From: a virus
Virus record (IMG/VR): IMGVR_UViG_2885686650_000001
Coordinates: 730-64,729 of that record
Strand: one strand, 5' to 3'
DNA length: 64,000 nucleotides
Positions 42,930 to 62,870 of the stretch are shown here, piece after piece. The notes below the pieces were generated by a model, which worked only from the letters and a program-made list of their open reading frames with translations, was not told the origin of the DNA and searched no databases. Both the position numbers and the translations under genes were made by a program. Position 1 is the stretch's first letter; each line of letters starts with the position of its first letter.

Positions 42930-43403
42930 ATGATGAAAAATAGTTCGCCGACGGCCTTAAATAAACGAGGAATCAAGGTCAGCTTTGACGGATACAAGTT
43001 TGATTCCCAAAAGGAATACTTGTTTTACTCGAAGTTCGTTAAAGATTCAGGTTATAAATTCGACGTTCATCCAGCCTATGAGTTGGTCGCGACGACACCG
43101 ATTGAGCAGGCTAAAATTGGCTCAGCAAGATATACGCCTGATTTCGTGATCTATGATAATGAGGGCAAAATTAAGCACGTTTACGATGTCAAAAACAGTT
43201 TGACTGTTTATGGTATCGATGCATCTGCTAAGCTCAGATTCCGATTGTTTGCTGCTAAGTACGGTATTCCCGTTGAGGCAGTTGTGGTCAGGGCTAATGA
43301 TTTTAAGACAATTGCACAATGTGTGACTAAACCGCTCAACGAGAAACAACCATTAATCAAAAAAGATTTTAACTATAACTGGCTTGAGGCCACTAATTAT
43401 TAG
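42930..43403 (+). CDS. DUF1064-like PD-(D/E)xK endonuclease
   Basis: FDGYKFDSQKE...YTPDFVI...DVK. Confidence 0.8.
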   Translation: MMKNSSPTALNKRGIKVSFDGYKFDSQKEYLFYSKFVKDSGYKFDVHPAYELVATTPIEQAKIGSARYTPDFVIYDNEGKIKHVYDVKNSLTVYGIDASAKLRFRLFAAKYGIPVEAVVVRANDFKTIAQCVTKPLNEKQPLIKKDFNYNWLEATNY

Positions 43404-53837: not shown

Positions 53838-55909
53838 TGGCAACAGAGTTAGGACAAGCCTATGTTCAAATTATGCCTTCTGCTAAGGGAATTTCTGGTG
53901 CAATTTCGCGGCAACTTAATCCAGAAGCATCAGCTGCTGGCCAAAGTGCCGGCGGTTTATTAGGTGGTAAGCTAGTGACTGTCTTGAAAGGCGCGGTTGC
54001 AACAGCTGCAATTGGTAAAGCCATCGCCACTTCGATTTCTGCTGGCGCTGATTTACAACAATCCCTTGGTGGTATTGAGACCTTATTTAAGGGTAGTGCT
54101 GACAAGGTTAAGAAATATGCCAACGAGGCCTATAAAACTTCTGGACTATCCGCTAATGATTATATGGAAAATGTCACTAGTTTTAGTGCGTCATTGTTAC
54201 AGTCGTTGGGCGGTAATACTGCCAAAGCTGCTGATCAAGCTAATACCGCGATGGTCGATATGGCCGATAACTCAAATAAAATGGGCACGTCCTTGGACTT
54301 GATTCAAAACGCTTATCAAGGCTTTGCAAAGCAAAATTACACCATGTTAGATAACTTAAAACTAGGTTACGGTGGTACTAAGACCGAAATGGAACGTCTG
54401 TTAAAAGATGCGACGAAACTAACTGGTGTGAAGTACGACATTAACAATCTTAGTGATGTCTACAGTGCAATTCACGCAGTTCAAGGGCAATTGGGAATTA
54501 CTGGTACGACAGCCAAAGAAGCGGCCTCGACCCTGAGCGGATCCTTAGCTTCAATGAAATCTGCTGCATCAAATGTACTTGCTGGTCTTTCTTTGGGCCA
54601 GGATATTACACCGGCCTTACAGTCCTTAATTTCAACAACATCGACATTTCTGTTTGATAATTTGATACCAATGATTGGTAATATTATTAAAGGTTTACCA
54701 ACGGTTATTTCCACGTTCCTAACTGAGGGTGTTCCACAGTTGTTGGAATCGGTGATGAATTTGATTACACAGGTTGGTGCCGGAATTTCTGAGAGCATAC
54801 CAACTTTTATCAGTAAGTTTAGTCAGCTGATTCCAGCAATCACAACTTGGCTATCAACTAATCTACCGACTTTCCTAAATACTGGCGTGCAAATACTGAC
54901 CAATATTGGAAATGGTATCATTCAGGGATTACCACAATTAATTGGTGTTGCTAGTTCCTTAATTGATACCTTCGTCAGTTTTTTGTTCGAGAATTGGCCT
55001 AAAATTCTAAATTCAGGGGCGACGCTATTAGTCAATTTGATTAGTGGCATTGTCCAGAATTTACCAGCCATTGGTACCAGCGCTATCCAAGCGGCAGGTA
55101 AGTTCATTGATACGATTGTCCAAAAAGCACCAACTTACGTGCAAACTGGTTTTAATATTTTGGCAAAGTTAGTTTCTGGTATTTTGAACAACTTGCCGTC
55201 GCTCATTTCAACAGCATTTTCCCTGGTAACAAAATTTGCTGGGATGATTATCCAAAAACTACCGAGTATCATTGCTGCCGGTGTTGAAATCTTGCTAAGT
55301 CTGATTGGCGGAATTTTAAAATCTTTACCTAGTCTGTTAAAGGCGGTCGGCAGAATTGGTAGTACGATCATCGACAATGTGACAAAAATTGATTTACTAG
55401 GTGCTGGCAAAGCCATCATGGAGTCCTTACTTGAAGGTTTACAAAAAGCTTGGGGTAAAGTGAAAGAGTTTGTCGGCGGAATCGCTGACTGGATCAAGAA
55501 ACATAAAGGCCCAATCAGTTATGACCGTAAATTATTGGTACCTGCTGGTAATGCTATTATGTCAGGACTTAATAGTGGCTTGATCGATGAATTTAAAAAT
55601 GTTAAGCGGACAGTTGCCGGTATGGGATCACAGCTTGGTGTTGAACTACAACCACAAATCGCAACAACTGCCGGCCAATTAACCGCCCAGTTAAATGCTG
55701 ATACAACCAGATTTAACAATTTAGGGAGAGATGATTTTTCTGATACCAATAGTACTAAGGCTTTAGAATTACTGCAGGCGATTGCTGATAAGCGCACAGT
55801 AATTGATGGCTCAAGCGTTAGCAGTGGTTTATCTCCATATATTAGCCAGAAATCCGTATCACGGACACAAACAGTAGAAAGAGGTGGCGCGGTTGAGGTC
55901 AGATTCTAG
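53837..55909 (+). CDS. Tape measure protein (690 aa)
   Basis: ATELGQAYVQIMPS...LDNLKLGYGGTK; hydrophobic repeats. Confidence 0.93.
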   Translation: MATELGQAYVQIMPSAKGISGAISRQLNPEASAAGQSAGGLLGGKLVTVLKGAVATAAIGKAIATSISAGADLQQSLGGIETLFKGSADKVKKYANEAYKTSGLSANDYMENVTSFSASLLQSLGGNTAKAADQANTAMVDMADNSNKMGTSLDLIQNAYQGFAKQNYTMLDNLKLGYGGTKTEMERLLKDATKLTGVKYDINNLSDVYSAIHAVQGQLGITGTTAKEAASTLSGSLASMKSAASNVLAGLSLGQDITPALQSLISTTSTFLFDNLIPMIGNIIKGLPTVISTFLTEGVPQLLESVMNLITQVGAGISESIPTFISKFSQLIPAITTWLSTNLPTFLNTGVQILTNIGNGIIQGLPQLIGVASSLIDTFVSFLFENWPKILNSGATLLVNLISGIVQNLPAIGTSAIQAAGKFIDTIVQKAPTYVQTGFNILAKLVSGILNNLPSLISTAFSLVTKFAGMIIQKLPSIIAAGVEILLSLIGGILKSLPSLLKAVGRIGSTIIDNVTKIDLLGAGKAIMESLLEGLQKAWGKVKEFVGGIADWIKKHKGPISYDRKLLVPAGNAIMSGLNSGLIDEFKNVKRTVAGMGSQLGVELQPQIATTAGQLTAQLNADTTRFNNLGRDDFSDTNSTKALELLQAIADKRTVIDGSSVSSGLSPYISQKSVSRTQTVERGGAVEVRF

Positions 55910-56633
55910 GCAATACGGAGTAACTTTTTGTGGCCAGCATACTTGGAATGATTTAGGTTTGGTGGTTCTGGACAAAAAGATTACTTTTCCTAAAAGAGAC
56001 AAGGCTCAAATAGCGCTACCTTATTCAAGTAAGATTATTGATTTGAGCACACTTTATGGATTACAGCCTTATGTAGAACGAACCATTGAATTAACTTTTT
56101 TGATCATCGACCAGGAAACTTTATCGAAGGATGCTTTGTATAACCGCTGGACTAAAGTAATTAATTTATTTGAATCGCCTGAAGGCAAGTCACCACTGAT
56201 TGATGATATTATGCCGGAGTATTACTATCTGGCCGAACTGGTAGATCCGCCGACGTGGGATGAATACCGATATCATGGCAAGTTCACGTTAAAGTTTGAC
56301 GCGTATCCATTTCGAATTCATGTCAAGCCTGAGGGCGATGATATTTGGGACACATTTAATTTTGAGAGCGACGTGGCACAAATAACCAAGTATGAAGTTA
56401 ATGGTTCTAAGGATATCGAACTAATCAATATCGGTACAAATGAGGTGCAACCAACAATTGTTGCTAATGCGAATTTTGTTTTGATTACTTCTACTAAGAC
56501 AATCAATATTTCAGCTGGCACTACGAACCCTGATCTAGTCCCTTATCCCTTTGTTTTGCCAGTCGGTGAAAGCAAGATTCAGATTCAGGGCACTGGGACA
56601 ATTGAATTTCAATGGCAGAAGGAGTTGATCTAA
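55884..56633 (+). CDS. Distal tail protein (Dit)
   Basis: YYYLAE, DDIWDTFNF; homologous to 26001-26741. Confidence 0.85.
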   Translation: MARLRSDSRQYGVTFCGQHTWNDLGLVVLDKKITFPKRDKAQIALPYSSKIIDLSTLYGLQPYVERTIELTFLIIDQETLSKDALYNRWTKVINLFESPEGKSPLIDDIMPEYYYLAELVDPPTWDEYRYHGKFTLKFDAYPFRIHVKPEGDDIWDTFNFESDVAQITKYEVNGSKDIELINIGTNEVQPTIVANANFVLITSTKTINISAGTTNPDLVPYPFVLPVGESKIQIQGTGTIEFQWQKELI

Positions 56634-58573
56634 TGTACGAGGTGACACTCAGAAATGGGTGGAATGGCGAAGAGATATTAATTCATTCTGGTCACAGTGG
56701 CCGACGACTCCTTAAAGGTCAAATTGTTAAAGCAGTTGGATCATATGATTCTTTCAGTGGAGCCGTCGATCCTACAAACATTGGATACAATCTACTTCGT
56801 CCAATGCAAACTTTTATTAAAGTGACTCGCACTGACAAAGAGCGAGTTTTGTTTGAGGGACGGTTGCTTGATACTCAGCCAGCGATGAGTTCTGAGGGGA
56901 TAGTTAACCAAGACTTTTCTTGTGAGGGTTTAGAGAGCTTTTTACATGATTCCGTTCAACCCTGGGCGGAGTTCCATAACATTTCACCGAAAGATTTCCT
57001 TCAGTCACTGATTACTGAGCATAACAAGCAAGTTGAATCATATAAGCAGATTAAGCTTGGTAATGTTACTGTCACCAATTCAACTGATAACGTTTATCGT
57101 TTTAGTGATGATACCAAGGATACGTACGATAACATCAAGGAAAAGCTACTTGACAAACTTGGCGGGGAAATCCGTATTAGACACGAATTAGATGGCCTAT
57201 ATCTGGACTATGAACCGGTGATTGGAGAGCAATCTAACCAGGTCATCAGGCTTCAGTCTAATTTGATTTCCATTACACAAAAATTAGACCCAACGCCAGT
57301 TATTACAGTATTGAAACCATTAGGAAAGGCCGAAGAACGAACCACAACCGATACCGACACGACTCAGGCCGTCTCAACGCCCAGATTAACTATTGCGACG
57401 GCTAATAGTGGCAGTGAATTTTTACGAGATGAAAACCTCATTAGTCAGTTTGGTATTCTGATCAGGAGCAAGACCTGGGACGATGTGACCAATGCGACAA
57501 TTCTCAAGACTAAGGGTCTAGCGTTTATGAACAGTCAGGAGCCTGTTAAACAGCAAGTCCAAATTAAGGCCGTTGATTTATCGTTAATTGACAAACGGAT
57601 TGATGATTTTATTTGTGGAAATTACTATCACATCATCAACCCAATTATGGCGTTTGATCAGGTACTACGAATTGTCAGTCAGACGATTGATATTTGCGAC
57701 GCTAATAACTCAGTCATTGGTGCCGGCGACGTTCTAATGAGTCAGGAATCTTATAATTTGCAATTAAAACAGAATGCAGAGAACGCTGCTAGAATTGCTG
57801 AAAACTTAAGGCTGACAAATTCGTTGCAGGCTTCTGAGTTAGCTAAACTACAGGCCACGGCGAAGACGCAATCCGAAAAGATTGATTCGCTTGATAAGGC
57901 CGTTAAAGAACTGCAAACACCGGTCGATAAAGGCTATTACGAAGGCTCGATTATCGATGTTAGTTATTACCAGGGATCAATTAATTGGACATCGGTTAAA
58001 AGCGCAGGCCTTGCCCTGGGAATCGTTAGGGTTCAGGACGGCACGACAACGATCGATGCCAACTATAAAACGTATCTTGCTGATATTACTAATCTTGGCC
58101 TTAATTACGCCGTTTATGCGTTCTTCCGTGGCCAGTCTGTTAGTGATTCTGAGCAAGAGGCGGTGAACTTTTACAATCGAACTCAATTGGCAGTCGCTGG
58201 AAAAACGCAGCCAAGATTTTACGCTATCGACGTCGAAACAATTGAAATGGGCGGCAGCGCAAGCTTGATGCGTTCTGGAGTTGAGGCATACATGAATAAG
58301 CTCAACGAGTTAGGTATCCCAGATAGCAAGATTGTCCTGTATATCGCAAACAACCTATACGCTAGCCTGAATCTTAATGTCAGCCGCGCCGGATCAGTTT
58401 GGTTGCCAACTTATGGAGCAAATGATGGGTCGATTCCGACTGATTACAAGCCAAGTTATCCCTATGACCTGTGGCAATACACGAGTAAGGGAACTATTGC
58501 TGGTATATCAGGAAATGTCGATATGAGCACGAATCCAAGCAGTCGATTTAAAGAAGCATATCTTAAAAAGTAA
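56612..58573 (+). CDS. Tal hub with C-terminal GH25 muramidase
   Basis: Colinear with 26741-28678; IIDVSYYQG...IDVE...LWQYTS. Confidence 0.88.
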   Translation: MAEGVDLMYEVTLRNGWNGEEILIHSGHSGRRLLKGQIVKAVGSYDSFSGAVDPTNIGYNLLRPMQTFIKVTRTDKERVLFEGRLLDTQPAMSSEGIVNQDFSCEGLESFLHDSVQPWAEFHNISPKDFLQSLITEHNKQVESYKQIKLGNVTVTNSTDNVYRFSDDTKDTYDNIKEKLLDKLGGEIRIRHELDGLYLDYEPVIGEQSNQVIRLQSNLISITQKLDPTPVITVLKPLGKAEERTTTDTDTTQAVSTPRLTIATANSGSEFLRDENLISQFGILIRSKTWDDVTNATILKTKGLAFMNSQEPVKQQVQIKAVDLSLIDKRIDDFICGNYYHIINPIMAFDQVLRIVSQTIDICDANNSVIGAGDVLMSQESYNLQLKQNAENAARIAENLRLTNSLQASELAKLQATAKTQSEKIDSLDKAVKELQTPVDKGYYEGSIIDVSYYQGSINWTSVKSAGLALGIVRVQDGTTTIDANYKTYLADITNLGLNYAVYAFFRGQSVSDSEQEAVNFYNRTQLAVAGKTQPRFYAIDVETIEMGGSASLMRSGVEAYMNKLNELGIPDSKIVLYIANNLYASLNLNVSRAGSVWLPTYGANDGSIPTDYKPSYPYDLWQYTSKGTIAGISGNVDMSTNPSSRFKEAYLKK

Positions 58574-58581
58574 GGGGTGAG

Positions 58582-59361
58582 ATGATGGCAGAAGGTAAAG
58601 GTGAAGCAGAATATCGCGACCCTGAACACGTTCCGGAAAAACAACAATATGATCCAGACAATGTTAAGCCGCTAGCCCAACAGTTAGCGGCTTTTCTGCG
58701 AACTAAAATGTATGGCAAAGATGTTCGGGAAACACTAGCGCGTTGGATAGAAATAAACTTGGCAGCACTTGAATTTTTGCGAGATGATCAGCAAACGTTT
58801 AAAGTTGATTTAACTGGCAAACAAACGGCCGTAACCAATCGTCAAACGGAAGTTGAGAAGCGACAAACTAATCTCGAAGGACGTTTTACTAATGTTATTG
58901 CTAATGCCACTAAAGACAGCGAAGTAATTGATGCTAGAAGTTCCGCTATTTATGGCTCATTTGGTGTGCTAGATCAGCGGCTAGAAAATATCGAACAGGC
59001 ACTAGCATTATTAGCACCGACTGGTTACACAGTAACGATTAACCACGGCCTAGGTCGCAATCCGACAGTAACGGTTGTCTATTATGAGTATGCGCTGGGC
59101 ACTGAGCCAAACGGCCTGGGAACTGGCCCTGAAGGCACGTTCGGCGGCACACCAAGTAAGACGCTTGAATCGACAGTCAGCTATCCGGACGCCAATACAG
59201 CCAAGATTGATTTGCCAGTTGGTTTTAAATTGACAGGTGATCCGGTATTTCAGCCGGCGGATAATCGCTGGTATATCATTGACGGCTATCGAACGTTAAG
59301 ATTTGACCTGGGAGTTACTGCAGACGACACGCCAAACACTGGTGACCAAAGCCAACTGTGA
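58582..59361 (+). CDS. Baseplate upper protein-like
   Basis: LRTKMYGKDVRETLA; SEVIDAR; INHGLGRNP C-terminal domain. Confidence 0.75.
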   Translation: MMAEGKGEAEYRDPEHVPEKQQYDPDNVKPLAQQLAAFLRTKMYGKDVRETLARWIEINLAALEFLRDDQQTFKVDLTGKQTAVTNRQTEVEKRQTNLEGRFTNVIANATKDSEVIDARSSAIYGSFGVLDQRLENIEQALALLAPTGYTVTINHGLGRNPTVTVVYYEYALGTEPNGLGTGPEGTFGGTPSKTLESTVSYPDANTAKIDLPVGFKLTGDPVFQPADNRWYIIDGYRTLRFDLGVTADDTPNTGDQSQL

Positions 59362-59423
59362 CGGCGCCTAGCAATCTAGTGGTAAGCCCGGATGAAGACA
59401 GTGTCAAACTAGAATGGGAGTGA
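59358..59423 (+). CDS. 21-codon micro-ORF encoding Fn3 strands A-B
   Basis: GTG overlapping the upstream TGA; TAPSNLVVSPDEDSVKLEWE. Confidence 0.55.
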   Translation: MTAPSNLVVSPDEDSVKLEWE

Positions 59424-59427
59424 TGGA

Positions 59428-59916
59428 ATGATTTATTATATTTATCAGAATAATGAAAAAGTGAAAGAAGTCGAAAATGCTAAGACAGTAACCATTACCG
59501 GATTGGCGCCGAATACCAAGTATACTTTTGCAGTCAGCGCATGGAATGGTATTCGCGAAAGTGCTAAGTCTAACGTTGTCACTATTACGACTGCAGCTAT
59601 CCCTGTAACAGCCATTACGTTAACCATTGACAAGACAATGGAAGTTGGCCAAACAGTTAAGGCTGCTATCACATTGACACCAACTAACGCAACTGATAAG
59701 ACGGTCACTTATAAGACGAGTGATACATTAATTGCGACAGTTGGGACTGACGGGTCGGTTAAGGCAATTAAACCGGGAACTGTAACGCTGACAGCCACAG
59801 CTTCGAGCGGCAAAACGGCCACGGCGTCGATTACGATTTACGAAGCCTTAGTGACAGTTACTAATTTGGCCAGTTCGGCCGTTACTTCCAGCGGCGTAAC
59901 ATTAACTTGGTCGTAA
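59428..59916 (+). CDS. Fn3 (strands C-G) + Big_2 Ig domain + Fn3 strands A-B
   Basis: YYIYQN...TITGLAPNTKYTFAVSA; PVTAITL...TPTNATDKTVTY; TNLASSAVTSSGVTLTWS-stop. Confidence 0.85.
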   Translation: MIYYIYQNNEKVKEVENAKTVTITGLAPNTKYTFAVSAWNGIRESAKSNVVTITTAAIPVTAITLTIDKTMEVGQTVKAAITLTPTNATDKTVTYKTSDTLIATVGTDGSVKAIKPGTVTLTATASSGKTATASITIYEALVTVTNLASSAVTSSGVTLTWS

Positions 59917-59933
59917 AGTGAGGTGAGAGCCTC

Positions 59934-60383
59934 ATGCAATATAAGGTTTATCAGGGCACGGTGCTGAAAACTACCGTCACTAGCAAGACTGCTAATATCA
60001 CAGGACTGGCGCCACTGACCAGTTACACATTTGGCGTTGTGGCTAATAATGGGTTGAGAGATAGCGCTAAGGCTAGTCTGACCGTTAAGACACGTGGTGT
60101 TAGGTTTGTTATTCCAACAACGTTAACAGTCGGTGCTACTATTACATTGCGCTATCAGGAGTATTCACTGGGACTAGTTCCGCTGGGTAACGAACCAGCG
60201 GGGATGTTTGGTGGTGGCAATAATGCCAATCTATTGGCTAAAGTTATTTCGACCGCCAGTGGATCAAGTACGGTCGAGTTAACAGTATCAAATGCAAGTT
60301 TTGCGGACGGCACTAAATTAAATAAGTTAGAAGACGGTAGCTTTGGGGCCTTTAACGGTGCTAAAGCTATTTATTTTGGATAG
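59934..60383 (+). CDS. Fn3 (strands C-G) plus a domain shared with the BppU-like protein
   Basis: YKVYQG...NITGLAPLTSYTFGVVA; RBS GAGGTGA. Confidence 0.8.
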   Translation: MQYKVYQGTVLKTTVTSKTANITGLAPLTSYTFGVVANNGLRDSAKASLTVKTRGVRFVIPTTLTVGATITLRYQEYSLGLVPLGNEPAGMFGGGNNANLLAKVISTASGSSTVELTVSNASFADGTKLNKLEDGSFGAFNGAKAIYFG

Positions 60384-60392
60384 AGGTGATCT

Positions 60393-60546
60393 TATGGATA
60401 CCAGTGATTTAAATGTTATTGCCAAAAATCAAACGAAGTTAGCAAAAGCTACTTTAACAGCCATGCTGATTTGCTTACAGCCAACTGATACAATGTCAGT
60501 GAGGAGCGTGAGAAGAAATGAAAGCAAAAAGCGAAAAGAAAATTAG
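60393..60546 (+). CDS. Short tail-region ORF, possibly truncated by the following insert
   Basis: RBS AGAGGTGA; MDTSDLNVIAKNQTKLAKA. Confidence 0.5.
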
Positions 60547-61219
60547 TCTGTTTTTAAGGATAATTGGAACTTCTATTTTGGCAGTTTTACCATTAGTAGC
60601 ATTTTTACTAACTAAGGAATCGGCAGTTTTATGGCCGGTTACAGTTTTATCTGTGATTGGGATCATTGGAATTGATATTAATTGGTACTCGTTATCATTG
60701 CGATATGGTGATGCTGGTGTGGTTATTGTCAAACAATTGGCTGAAGCACAGAAAACTGCAGATCAGATTAATGTTTCTCTGGATAAATTCAACAAAACGG
60801 TATCTTTATTCTTAGATACTAATATGGCCGAGATTGAGGCAACGAATAGATTTGCCACTGGACCAAGACCTGATTATCTGATGAAATTTATTAAATCCGC
60901 AGAAGAAATGATGGTGGACTTTGGTGGTGGCGATTCAGAACAGCAAACCTTATTAGAGGGGGTTAAGGCAAACCTGATCAACTCATATGATGCTGAACTC
61001 AATGTCGCATTTCCAGAGATTGCCCAGGAAGCCAAACAGTACTTTTTTGATGGTTCCGTGAGAACAGATGATTTTTCAGAATACAATTCTAAAAGAGCGG
61101 TTGTTGATTTTGATAGATTACGCAAGATAGATTTAAGTTCGTTAACCTGGCAGAAACAGATTGCTTACAAAAAAATGTTAGATAAACTTGAAACATTCAT
61201 GGAACATTATTTTAATTAA
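60518..61219 (+). CDS. Membrane protein (two N-terminal TMs), moron-like
   Basis: Hydrophobic aa 8-55, soluble acidic remainder; followed by a terminator. Confidence 0.8.
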   Translation: MKAKSEKKISLFLRIIGTSILAVLPLVAFLLTKESAVLWPVTVLSVIGIIGIDINWYSLSLRYGDAGVVIVKQLAEAQKTADQINVSLDKFNKTVSLFLDTNMAEIEATNRFATGPRPDYLMKFIKSAEEMMVDFGGGDSEQQTLLEGVKANLINSYDAELNVAFPEIAQEAKQYFFDGSVRTDDFSEYNSKRAVVDFDRLRKIDLSSLTWQKQIAYKKMLDKLETFMEHYFN

Positions 61220-61276: not shown

Positions 61277-61669
61277 ATGGCAGAGTTATCACCGATTTTT
61301 AACGGAATGGAAAACGGCCCGACAGCTATTGATACGAATTTTAAAAATATCAATACTGTTTTGGCCACGTTGAGCGCGACAAGTTCGATGCAAGAAATTA
61401 AAGGAGTTAACGGTGCGGCAAAGTCCGCTTGGCTAACGGTGGATAAGGTATCTCATATCTGTGTACTTGTTATCTGGTCTAAATTGCCCAAAAAAACTAC
61501 TACCATGTATTGGATCCCAGCAGAATATGCGGCACACGCTGATAGAATTCCAGTGATTAAATGCGGGGATCAGGCGACGTTATCAATTAACGGTAATGGG
61601 AACGTTCAACTTTTAGGTAATACAAGCGATTCAGCAGATGCAATCGGTTTTGCGGTTTGGGGGTATTAG
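61277..61669 (+). CDS. Receptor-binding/fibre protein, cassette 1
   Basis: IFNGMENGPTAIDTNF N-terminus; beta-rich head. Confidence 0.7.
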   Translation: MAELSPIFNGMENGPTAIDTNFKNINTVLATLSATSSMQEIKGVNGAAKSAWLTVDKVSHICVLVIWSKLPKKTTTMYWIPAEYAAHADRIPVIKCGDQATLSINGNGNVQLLGNTSDSADAIGFAVWGY

Positions 61670-61670
61670 G

Positions 61671-61943
61671 ATGGACAAATTAATTTATTTTTACAAAGAT
61701 GATTTAAGTTTTGATCATGTTGGTGTGATTGTAAAAGGTGAAAAGGTTCCTGAAAATGCTACTTTAGCGGCACCACAAGGATATGAACCTTTTACTTATG
61801 ATCAGGCAACAGATACTTGGTCAGGAATTGATGAAAAGACTTGGAATGCAAGTCATCCTGATATTAGTCCGGAACCAACCGAACAAGATAAAATCAACGC
61901 GATGGTTTTCGAACAAATCGCAGCACTTCAAACTGAAAAATAA
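61671..61943 (+). CDS. Fibre chaperone-like protein, cassette 1
   Basis: PENATLAAP...YDQATDTW...PEPTEQDKINA. Confidence 0.65.
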   Translation: MDKLIYFYKDDLSFDHVGVIVKGEKVPENATLAAPQGYEPFTYDQATDTWSGIDEKTWNASHPDISPEPTEQDKINAMVFEQIAALQTEK

Positions 61944-62110: not shown

Positions 62111-62569
62111 ATGGCACTGATTAAAATTTTCAAGGGCATAGAAAATGGTCCTGAGGCAATTGATGATAATTTCAATTTTCTAGATCAAAACAAACCTAAT
62201 AAGACCGACGTCGAGTCAAAGGTAGATATCAGTATTTGGCATAATGAGCCAATGCGTAATGGTTTTACAGGAAGCGTTCACTGGCGAGTAATGAAGTTTG
62301 CATCATCGGATGCAAAATTAGTTGAAATTATTGCAACTGTGGGTAATTTGGCTGGTAATTCGGGGAAATATTTGTGTGACTTTCCTGCAGAGTTAGTACC
62401 CGCCAGAGAGATTCCGTTGAATTGGGCGCAATCTCGTAACAATGACTTTGATAAGGTCGGAGTGAGTCTAGGGGGAGAAAAAACCAGTTTACGTTTAAAT
62501 TTTACTGTTGGCGGCCCTAGCAATCTTTCTGTTGATATCCATCAGATGTATTGGACTGATCTTATTTAG
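62111..62569 (+). CDS. Receptor-binding/fibre protein, cassette 2
   Basis: IFKGIENGPEAIDDNF N-terminus; different head. Confidence 0.7.
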   Translation: MALIKIFKGIENGPEAIDDNFNFLDQNKPNKTDVESKVDISIWHNEPMRNGFTGSVHWRVMKFASSDAKLVEIIATVGNLAGNSGKYLCDFPAELVPAREIPLNWAQSRNNDFDKVGVSLGGEKTSLRLNFTVGGPSNLSVDIHQMYWTDLI

Positions 62570-62582
62570 GAGGAATCTAGAA

Positions 62583-62870
62583 ATGAATAAATGGTATTTA
62601 TTTGATAAAAGCACTGGAGCATATGAGTTTAATTATTTGGAAGCTACTAAACAGCCTGAAAATTCGACGGACGTTGATCCTGGTGATCTAACGAATCCTG
62701 TTTGGGATGGAAATCAATGGGTTGCTGGGCAAAGTGAAGTGCCAGAAGAACAGCCTACTCAGCAGGAACAGCTAAATGCTAGTGTGCTGGCTCAGATTGC
62801 CCAGAACAAGGCTGACCAGGATAAATTCAATGCTCAAATTCTACTGGCAATGGCCAAAGGAGGAAATTAA
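62583..62870 (+). CDS. Fibre chaperone-like protein, cassette 2
   Basis: PENSTDVDP...PVWDGNQWV...PTQQEQLNA. Confidence 0.7.
   Translation: MNKWYLFDKSTGAYEFNYLEATKQPENSTDVDPGDLTNPVWDGNQWVAGQSEVPEEQPTQQEQLNASVLAQIAQNKADQDKFNAQILLAMAKGGN

Follow-up and report, generated by a model that had tools for sequence, protein, structure and literature searches.

Three adjacent genes in the baseplate region of a viral DNA raise the question of how a protein domain is completed when its strands are encoded on both sides of a stop codon. The genes are found in a stretch of 64,000 nucleotides (IMG/VR record IMGVR_UViG_2885686650_000001, positions 730 to 64,729), the whole of which is referred to here as the window. 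They encode a homologue of the baseplate upper protein BppU and two further proteins, ORF2 and ORF3. Two fibronectin type III (Fn3) domains are encoded in this region, and both are cut at a gene boundary between strands B and C. The A and B strands (the tag) are followed by a stop codon, and the next gene begins with strands C to G (the socket). The region is the adhesion-device module of a Lactobacillaceae siphophage prophage, whose host genome is probably a Lapidilactobacillus, sharing its genus with Lapidilactobacillus dextrinicus. We propose that the three proteins assemble into a chain, BppU-tag 1 : ORF2 : tag 2 : ORF3, a reading to which we assign a probability of about 0.6.

Two Fn3 domains are divided between genes

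None of the three ORFs alone matches the full seven-strand fn3 profile (PF00041), and only joined pieces do. In Pfam searches, ORF2 alone matches positions 39-82 of the 84 in the profile. ORF3 alone matches positions 42-76, in addition to BppU_IgG (E = 1e-18). When the preceding A-B frame is joined to ORF2, the match grows to positions 2-82 (E = 8e-8), and joining ORF2 to ORF3 produces two fn3 stretches (E = 5e-12). Big_2 is also found in ORF2 (E = 6e-11). PHROG 341 spans only the C-G and Big_2 part of this protein.

The first break follows the BppU-like gene, whose product ends in PNTGDQSQL before TGA. Tag 1 is located in the -1 frame of this gene, which is open from 59346 to a stop at 59421-59423 and is matched by the AB1 profile (E = 0.001). 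The ATG of ORF2 is 4 nt beyond this stop and in the +1 frame relative to the A-B strands. ORF2 begins with MIYYIYQN and ends with VTLTWS before a TAA at 59914-59916. At the second break, 17 nt separate this stop from the ATG of ORF3, which is in the -1 frame relative to ORF2 and begins with MQYKVYQG. Both downstream genes have their own Shine-Dalgarno (SD) sequence (Table 1). An earlier reading of this DNA, referred to here as the original prediction, had described these ORFs, their coordinates and frames and both SD sequences, and all were borne out when the sequence was read again together with the Pfam results.

The split is conserved across relatives

Profiles of the four half-domains were run on about 120 fetched loci, which are given L numbers here. 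The order tag, socket, Big_2, tag, socket, IgG is found in all 43 distinct loci that contain ORF2, and all 43 have a stop after strand B and a restart at strand C. Relatives of ORF2 form 57 clusters (160-176 aa, 43-92% identity). All begin with M.YYIYQ in strand C, and all 57 end at the LTW motif, 1-5 residues past the strand-B Trp. Relatives of ORF3 begin at strand C in 56 of 56 clusters. Recurrence of the cut in 57 and 56 clusters and in 43 loci is far beyond chance. The original prediction had called for a survey of the B-C loop in homologues and had considered that the stops might be specific to one strain among uninterrupted relatives; the split is instead kept family-wide. The same three-gene layout is present in another species of the genus (L003), in a third species (L002) and in Latilactobacillus phage TMW 1.1381 P1 (L008), an induced phage from which purified virions were obtained and which carries both cuts.

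These results bear on whether the locus is a decaying or mis-sequenced single gene encoding BppU-Fn3-Big_2-Fn3-IgG. The joined domain order does read as one sensible multi-domain protein. However, identical cuts occur in dozens of independent assemblies from at least five genera, with protein identities of 43-92%, and in the phage with purified virions. All parts are under purifying selection. No uninterrupted relative turned up in protein searches, among which the exhaustive ORF2 search was uninformative because it was swamped by giant multi-Big_2 proteins. We consider the probability of a decayed or misread gene to be negligible.

Junction 2, between ORF2 and ORF3, varies considerably among the loci. 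The spacers are 4-17 nt long, the start codons are ATG, GTG or TTG, and relative frames 0, 1 and 2 are found in 24, 7 and 6 loci, respectively; there are often two or three stops. A start codon is present at strand C in every relative, with a strong SD sequence wherever the junction was read. BppU and the ORF2/ORF3 pair have three unrelated genes between them in L060-L063. In L060 (2616-4260; also L058 and L061-L063), the ORF2/ORF3 cassette is about 1 kb 3' of BppU, past a BppL-like gene and two small genes, so partner genes need not adjoin. Because of the varied frames, the stops and the separated partners, read-through, a single frameshift, sequencing error and pseudogenisation are excluded at junction 2. 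This agrees with the earlier argument that neither read-through nor one frameshift explains both breaks.

The same variation speaks to the idea that the three ORFs produce one polyprotein by read-through or serial programmed frameshifts, with the stops only tuning amounts. Phage Ig-like extensions are often added by frameshifting (PMC5009743), and in some relatives, including the Brochothrix phage discussed below, both ORFs are in one frame with a single stop between them. These facts are outweighed by the mixture of frames and the consecutive stops at junction 2, by the start codon of every downstream ORF and the SD sequences at the junctions read, by the partners that are 1 kb and three genes apart, and by phage Tuc2009, where a different protein bears the socket, at its C-terminus. 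A polyprotein is highly improbable.

A few loci have additional frame breaks. L019 (2900-3010 and 3600-3900) has tag 2 in the +1 frame relative to ORF2 and an interrupted ORF3, and in L015 and L091 (2150-2240) it is BppU that is broken. All three are metagenomic viral contigs, and the breaks are probably assembly errors or decay, not recoding. A weak match to the C-G profile at 43143-43241 in the window is located in a replication-module gene and was rejected as spurious.

Both halves are homologous to the BppU-BppA joint of phage Tuc2009

A joint of this kind has been seen in a crystal structure. BppU of phage Tuc2009 ends in a 25-residue β-hairpin (residues 296-321; PDB 5E7T), which completes one β-sheet of domain 2 (residues 230-286) of the accessory protein BppA (Legrand et al., 2016; PMC4742702). 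The composite domain resembles a titin domain (PMC4742702).

Both halves of the window domains are homologous to this joint. The A-B profile matches residues 301-319 of Tuc2009 BppU (E = 1e-7). The C-G profiles match residues 229-283 of Tuc2009 BppA (E = 1.6e-10 and 3.4e-9), and the profile of the ORF3 family (A3) matches 5e7t_B at 229-282. In Foldseek comparisons, the C-G half of the ORF3 AlphaFold2 model superposes on BppA domain 2 (5e7t_B) over 55 columns with an rmsd of 1.3 Å. The second half, the IgG domain, superposes on the C-terminal domains of BppU in 3u6x_S, 4v96 and 5e7t_A. The BppU-like protein itself has a helical N-terminal part followed by BppU_IgG at residues 148-243, and matches the C-terminal part of Tuc2009 BppU (5e7t_A, E = 5.9e-10) and TP901-1 BppU (4v96). 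For the homologous tag and socket of Tuc2009, inter-chain complementation is an experimental fact. Together with the family-wide conservation of the split, it supports the core of the original prediction, that the Fn3 halves are completed between molecules. The order BppU, ORF2, ORF3, which was also part of that prediction, is what we infer for this phage.

Proposed chain and self-closure of ORF2

In the proposed assembly, the C-terminus of BppU would bear the two-strand Fn3 tag. ORF2 and ORF3, translated separately, each begin with the five-strand C-G remainder, which would form an open socket. A tag would insert into the socket of another chain and complete the β-sandwich non-covalently, as in Tuc2009 BppU-BppA. 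ORF2 would serve as an adaptor: its N-terminal socket is joined through a Big_2 spacer to a second tag at the C-terminus.

Several observations among relatives are consistent with this arrangement. The gene order BppU, ORF2, ORF3 is constant, which we count in favor of the chain. A variation on it is seen in L. paracasei (L035), where BppU with a tag is directly followed by a protein composed of C-G and BppU_IgG, with no ORF2. Because this locus does without it, ORF2 looks like an optional extender with matching ends. Proteins with C-G strands and Big_2 that have no tag of their own also exist, in the Brochothrix phage (ORF40) and in L125, so this type of socket must be completed in trans. In a 92%-complete provirus without ORF2 (L064:1711-2616, record G061), the Trp of the BppU tag is replaced by Arg (RLDRNE), and no ORF3-like socket was detected 3' of BppU in the fetched locus. 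In this single lineage, the partners may have been lost naturally and the tag may then have decayed.

The AlphaFold2 model of ORF2 counts against the chain in that it suits self-closure or ORF2 polymers equally well. ORF2 alone is predicted with a pLDDT of 97 and a pTM of 0.73, its C-terminal A-B strands score above 94, and the model may close its own socket with its own tag. ORF2 would then be a circularly permuted Fn3 domain, formed by its own C-G and A-B strands with Big_2 as an insert. The BppU tag would pair with the ORF3 socket, and ORF2 would be a free protein or attached otherwise; in a variant, ORF2 forms head-to-tail polymers. All 162 residues have a pLDDT of at least 90, including strands 148-150 and 158-160. 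The linkers of about 7 and 9 residues could let Big_2 lie antiparallel to Fn3, and the two-gene system of L035 would make the BppU-type tag and ORF3-type socket the obligate pair.

However, the orphan half-domain of ORF3, modeled alone and lacking A-B strands, has a similarly high pLDDT of 91-95, so pLDDT does not discriminate between chain and self-closure, and the pTM of ORF2 is only 0.73. Foldseek comparison of the ORF2 model returned only Big_2 and tandem-Ig matches and is silent on closure in cis. The relatives with C-G strands and Big_2 but no tag (PHROG 341, Brochothrix ORF40, L125) imply that the ancestral socket was used in trans. In addition, ORF2 begins and ends in precisely the loop where the trans-split sites are cut; a chain accounts for this coincidence, whereas a permutation leaves it unexplained. 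It is also not evident how a self-closed ORF2 would enter the virion, although 43 loci retain the gene between BppU and ORF3. We therefore regard self-closure as unlikely and retain the chain as the preferred reading.

Tag 1 is encoded in the -1 frame of BppU

The BppU-like protein has 107 homologous clusters, which differ in how the tag is encoded. In 54 clusters, the protein carries the A-B strands in frame as its last residues; L002 is a natural in-frame relative. In 28, the strands are in the -1 frame and the protein ends in G[D/N/E]QS[Q/E/K][L/P]-stop, like that of the window. Three clusters have them in the +1 frame and end in TP at ACC_CCC_TGA (L036, L037), and in two the strands are present but Arg takes the place of the conserved Trp. 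The other 20 are without recognisable in-frame C-terminal A-B strands and include the L038 lineage. In L038 (3400-3501), the BppU gene closes with CCC_AGC_TAA and the +1 frame encodes the A-B strands; the ribosome may slip +1 at CCC_A with no stop codon occupying the A site.

We compared nine distinct loci of the window type. Codon differences in the -1 frame are 183 synonymous and 261 non-synonymous, and the corresponding numbers in the other two frames are 81/352 and 22/385. An in-frame 3-nt indel is also found in the -1 frame. Because of the synonymous excess and this indel, we conclude that the -1 frame is translated. Between a [Q/K/E] codon and a Thr codon, ACY, the frame under selection changes from 0 to -1. 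The T/C variation in ACY leaves the -1-frame residue unchanged but converts Leu to Pro when read in the 0 frame. Alignment with the in-frame relative L013 has a one-base deficit at the same spot. In addition, the base before the [Q/K/E] codon is always identical to the first base of the codon (AGC_CAA, TCA_AAA, TCG_GAA, TCG_GGA). This X_XRA covariation suggests a -1 slip of the P-site tRNA, for which C_CAA would be the slip site in the window. The anti-SD-like GGTGA, which contains a -1-frame stop, is located 7-10 nt upstream of the slip site in most relatives.

A -1 slip at C_CAA, just before the stop, would add the tag to a fraction of BppU chains. The junction peptide would read FDLGVTADDTPNTGDQSQ-(T or L)-VTAPSNLVVSPDEDSVK, that is, TGDQSQ-T/L-VTAPSNLVVSPDEDSVK. 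Relatives have canonical recoding sites, the +1 site CCC_TGA (L036, L037) and the -1 site G_GGA_AAG in the Brochothrix tail tube gene. In Listeria phage tail genes (tsh of PSA, A118 and A500), +1 shifting at CCC_UGA is documented, and Lactobacillus phage A2 uses -1 (PMC5009743). Phages seem indifferent as to whether Ig-like extensions are obtained by +1, by -1 or in frame (PMC5009743).

Three points weigh against frameshifting at this site. The canonical X_XXY_YYZ heptamer is not present in the window, where the sequence is C_CAA_CTG. GGTGA is missing from some relatives, L131 having GGTAA. Alignment folding gave no conserved RNA structure 3' of the site (-5.3 kcal/mol, with almost no covariation term). 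Among contigs of four runs, which cannot prove expression, one from an RNA library crosses the site without an indel, which speaks weakly against transcript slippage only. On balance, we think it fairly likely that tag 1 is added by -1 frameshifting. The original prediction had offered this route; the coding signature of the -1 frame favors it, and the lack of a canonical site does not. A paper on the induced phage TMW 1.1381 P1 contains no mention of proteomics, mass spectrometry, baseplate or frameshift.

The GTG at 59358, in the -1 frame, overlaps the TGA of BppU. The original prediction had also suggested that tag 1 is made as a coupled peptide of 21 residues. Started by termination-reinitiation at this codon, it would cap the ORF2 socket without being tethered to BppU. 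The GTGA start-stop overlap occurs in the window, L010, L123 and L124. However, GTG is GTA in L003, L008, L012, L121, L122 and L131, a change counted in five of nine relatives of this type. No SD sequence is found at a suitable distance, and the conserved Thr codon ACY, selected in the -1 frame, is upstream of the GTG. Many homologues carry the tag in frame on BppU. A free 21-residue tag is very unlikely. Two other candidates were rejected. Ribosome hopping would skip the TVTAP codons, on which selection acts in the -1 frame. Translation beginning internally, at the conserved GTG of LVVSP, would lose strand A, and no SD sequence precedes that codon.

ORF3 may carry a receptor-binding protein

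The second BppU_IgG domain, in ORF3, contains the conserved loop G.EP.G.FGG. The BppL trimers of TP901-1 and Tuc2009 form a cup with their N-terminal stems, and a loop of the BppU Ig-like domain is located in it (PMC4742702). The invariant residues of ORF3, Y77, G80, G85, E87, P88, G90, F92, G93 and G94, are in the homologous loop. Two BppL-like genes are found downstream, and the N-terminus of BppL-like 1 is similar to the stem by which Tuc2009 BppL docks onto the BppU_IgG loop. Because of the invariant residues in the loop that holds the receptor-binding protein and the two BppL-like genes, ORF3 probably gives a receptor-binding trimer, formed by one of the two BppL-like proteins, an additional place to dock. 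Two considerations count against this role: relatives mostly have one BppL-like gene, not two, and the assignment is by homology. ORF3 is enlarged in relatives, one of which has a weak, sub-threshold match to CBM_4_9 that recalls BppA.

The adhesion-device module

The features of the module are listed in Table 1. The tape measure gene is followed by Dit and then Tal, as identified from the window ORFs and Pfam, and the same gene order is also found in relatives. A scan of genome contigs returned only L. dextrinicus. Megablast against phage records gave no match.

Table 1. Features of the adhesion-device module, in window coordinates.
Feature	Position	Strand	Description
Dit	55884-56633		Upstream of Tal
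Tal (tail-associated lysin)	56612-58573	+	Pfam Prophage_tail and GH25
BppU-like baseplate upper protein	58582-59361	+	259 aa; Pfam BppU_IgG, E = 3.6e-36
Candidate -1 recoding site	59341-59361	+	GGTGA 59341-59345; C_CAA 59352-59355; CTG; TGA 59359-59361
A-B tag 1 (Fn3 strands A and B)	59355-59423	+	22 codons in the -1 frame of BppU; reads TVTAPSNLVVSPDEDSVKLEWE, then stop
SD and start of ORF2	59416-59430	+	GGGAG 59416-59420; 7-nt spacer; ATG 59428
ORF2 (putative adaptor)	59428-59916	+	162 aa; Fn3 C-G 59428-59598; Big_2 59599-59838; tag 2 59836-59913
SD and start of ORF3	59920-59936	+	GAGGTGA 59920-59926; 7-nt spacer; ATG 59934
ORF3 (putative end piece)	59934-60383	+	149 aa; Fn3 C-G 59934-60101; second BppU_IgG 60102-60377
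BppL-like receptor-binding protein 1	61277-61669	+	130 aa; PHROG 35784 'baseplate protein'; aligns with Tuc2009 BppL
BppL-like receptor-binding protein 2	62111-62569	+	152 aa; paralogue with the same N-terminal motif

When BppL-like 1 was aligned to Tuc2009 BppL (L129:1880-2398), the N-terminal motif was found to be kept. The two BppL-like genes are part of a duplicated two-gene cassette (61277-61943 and 62111-62870), in which each is followed by a gene for a protein of about 100 aa in PHROG 1766 ('tail fiber protein'). The cassettes possibly encode two alternative receptor-binding proteins. Between ORF3 and these genes, a 233-aa ORF (60518-61219; also in L010) has hydrophobic N-terminal segments and gave no Pfam or PHROG match. 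The location is odd for a membrane-like protein.

Split Fn3 domains near other virion genes

The same type of cut was observed outside the baseplate. In Brochothrix phage BtpYZU02 (OQ863044; L127:1380-1500), the tail tube gene terminates in G_GGA_AAG-TAA, which contains a canonical heptamer for -1 slippage. Strands resembling A and B (IPLVGAVNATSTGANVNLT, then stop) are encoded in the -1 frame. An SD sequence and an ORF starting at strand C with Big_2 follow (ORF40, annotated as 'major tail protein'). Judging from its sequence, this is the same split on a tail tube. In the head module of a Logan contig (L125:1770-2718), the last residues of a 61-aa ORF adjoining a capsid-like gene resemble strands A and B (PIEPTVTDVTPTIDGATVKVE). 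The next ORF, of 249 aa, starts from strand C and contains two Big_2 domains, without a tag of its own.

These cases may belong to a general, modular tag-and-socket system made from split Fn3 domains in Firmicute phages, an extension for which we see even odds. In such a system, the tag would be added in frame, or by +1 or -1 frameshifting for sub-stoichiometric display, and sockets would be placed on separately made proteins. Adaptors such as ORF2, which carry both ends, would allow arms to differ in length and in what they carry, which may be Big_2, carbohydrate-binding modules (CBMs) or a second BppU_IgG domain that docks a receptor-binding protein. The sites would include baseplates (the window), tail tubes (BtpYZU02) and the vicinity of capsid genes (L125).

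If correct, the model would account for the way in which many phages that infect lactic acid bacteria attach accessory modules for host binding to a conserved baseplate without gene fusion. Modules would be swappable by recombination at gene boundaries, and the efficiency of frameshifting could set their copy number. For annotation, short 'major tail protein' or 'hypothetical' ORFs that start at Fn3 strand C would be read as sockets, not fragments. A natural non-covalent pair of tag and socket, about 22 and 55 residues long, is a potential tool for protein assembly or for phage display of cargo.

Comparison with known systems

The proposed recoding resembles known frameshifted Ig/Fn3 extensions of phage proteins (PMC5009743). 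In both, a virion protein receives a C-terminal extension from another frame at or next to its stop, and the choice between +1, -1 and in-frame addition varies between relatives. The published cases add a whole Ig-like domain, whereas in the window only two strands would be added and another gene supplies the remainder. The slippery sequence of the window is non-canonical, unlike those cases.

The proposed chain is also similar to chaperone-usher pili, in which an incomplete Ig-like fold is completed by strands of a neighbor to form non-covalent chains. Pilins lack one C-terminal G strand and receive a single N-terminal strand via chaperone and usher, whereas the window Fn3 domains lack the N-terminal A-B strands and the donor is a C-terminal hairpin. 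No chaperone is evident and there is no homology to pili; the host is Gram-positive and the proteins belong to phage virions. Dutta, Batori, Koide and Koide reportedly rebuilt the tenth Fn3 domain of fibronectin from two fragments in 2005. That complementation was a laboratory construct, unlike the natural split in phages.

The closest comparison is with Tuc2009. There, a homologous BppU with BppU_IgG is followed by an A-B-type C-terminal extension of about 25 residues with the motif PPTNLIVSDVTSTSAKISWE, and the partner contains a homologous five-strand half sandwich of about 55 residues. Accessory genes fill the same slot between BppU and BppL. The joint itself is already known, though it was described as a titin-like composite domain (PMC4742702) and not presented as a split Fn3 domain or a general system. 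Searches of the literature for split Fn3 domains or donor strands in phage baseplates found nothing beyond the Tuc2009 paper. The new elements here are the proposed chaining through two joints, the putative adaptor, a tag probably controlled by recoding and the range of phages involved, none of which was found in the literature searched.

Several differences accompany these features. The Tuc2009 tag is in frame, whereas tag 1 is in the -1 frame. The socket of Tuc2009 is C-terminal on BppA, behind a CBM, whereas the window sockets are N-terminal, at the start codon. By Pfam, neither partner carries a BppA-like CBM; ORF2 bears Big_2 and the end piece ORF3 bears a second BppU_IgG domain. Unlike the Tuc2009 partner, ORF2 bears both a socket and a tag. 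Tuc2009 has one joint, and the window, as read from its sequence, has two.

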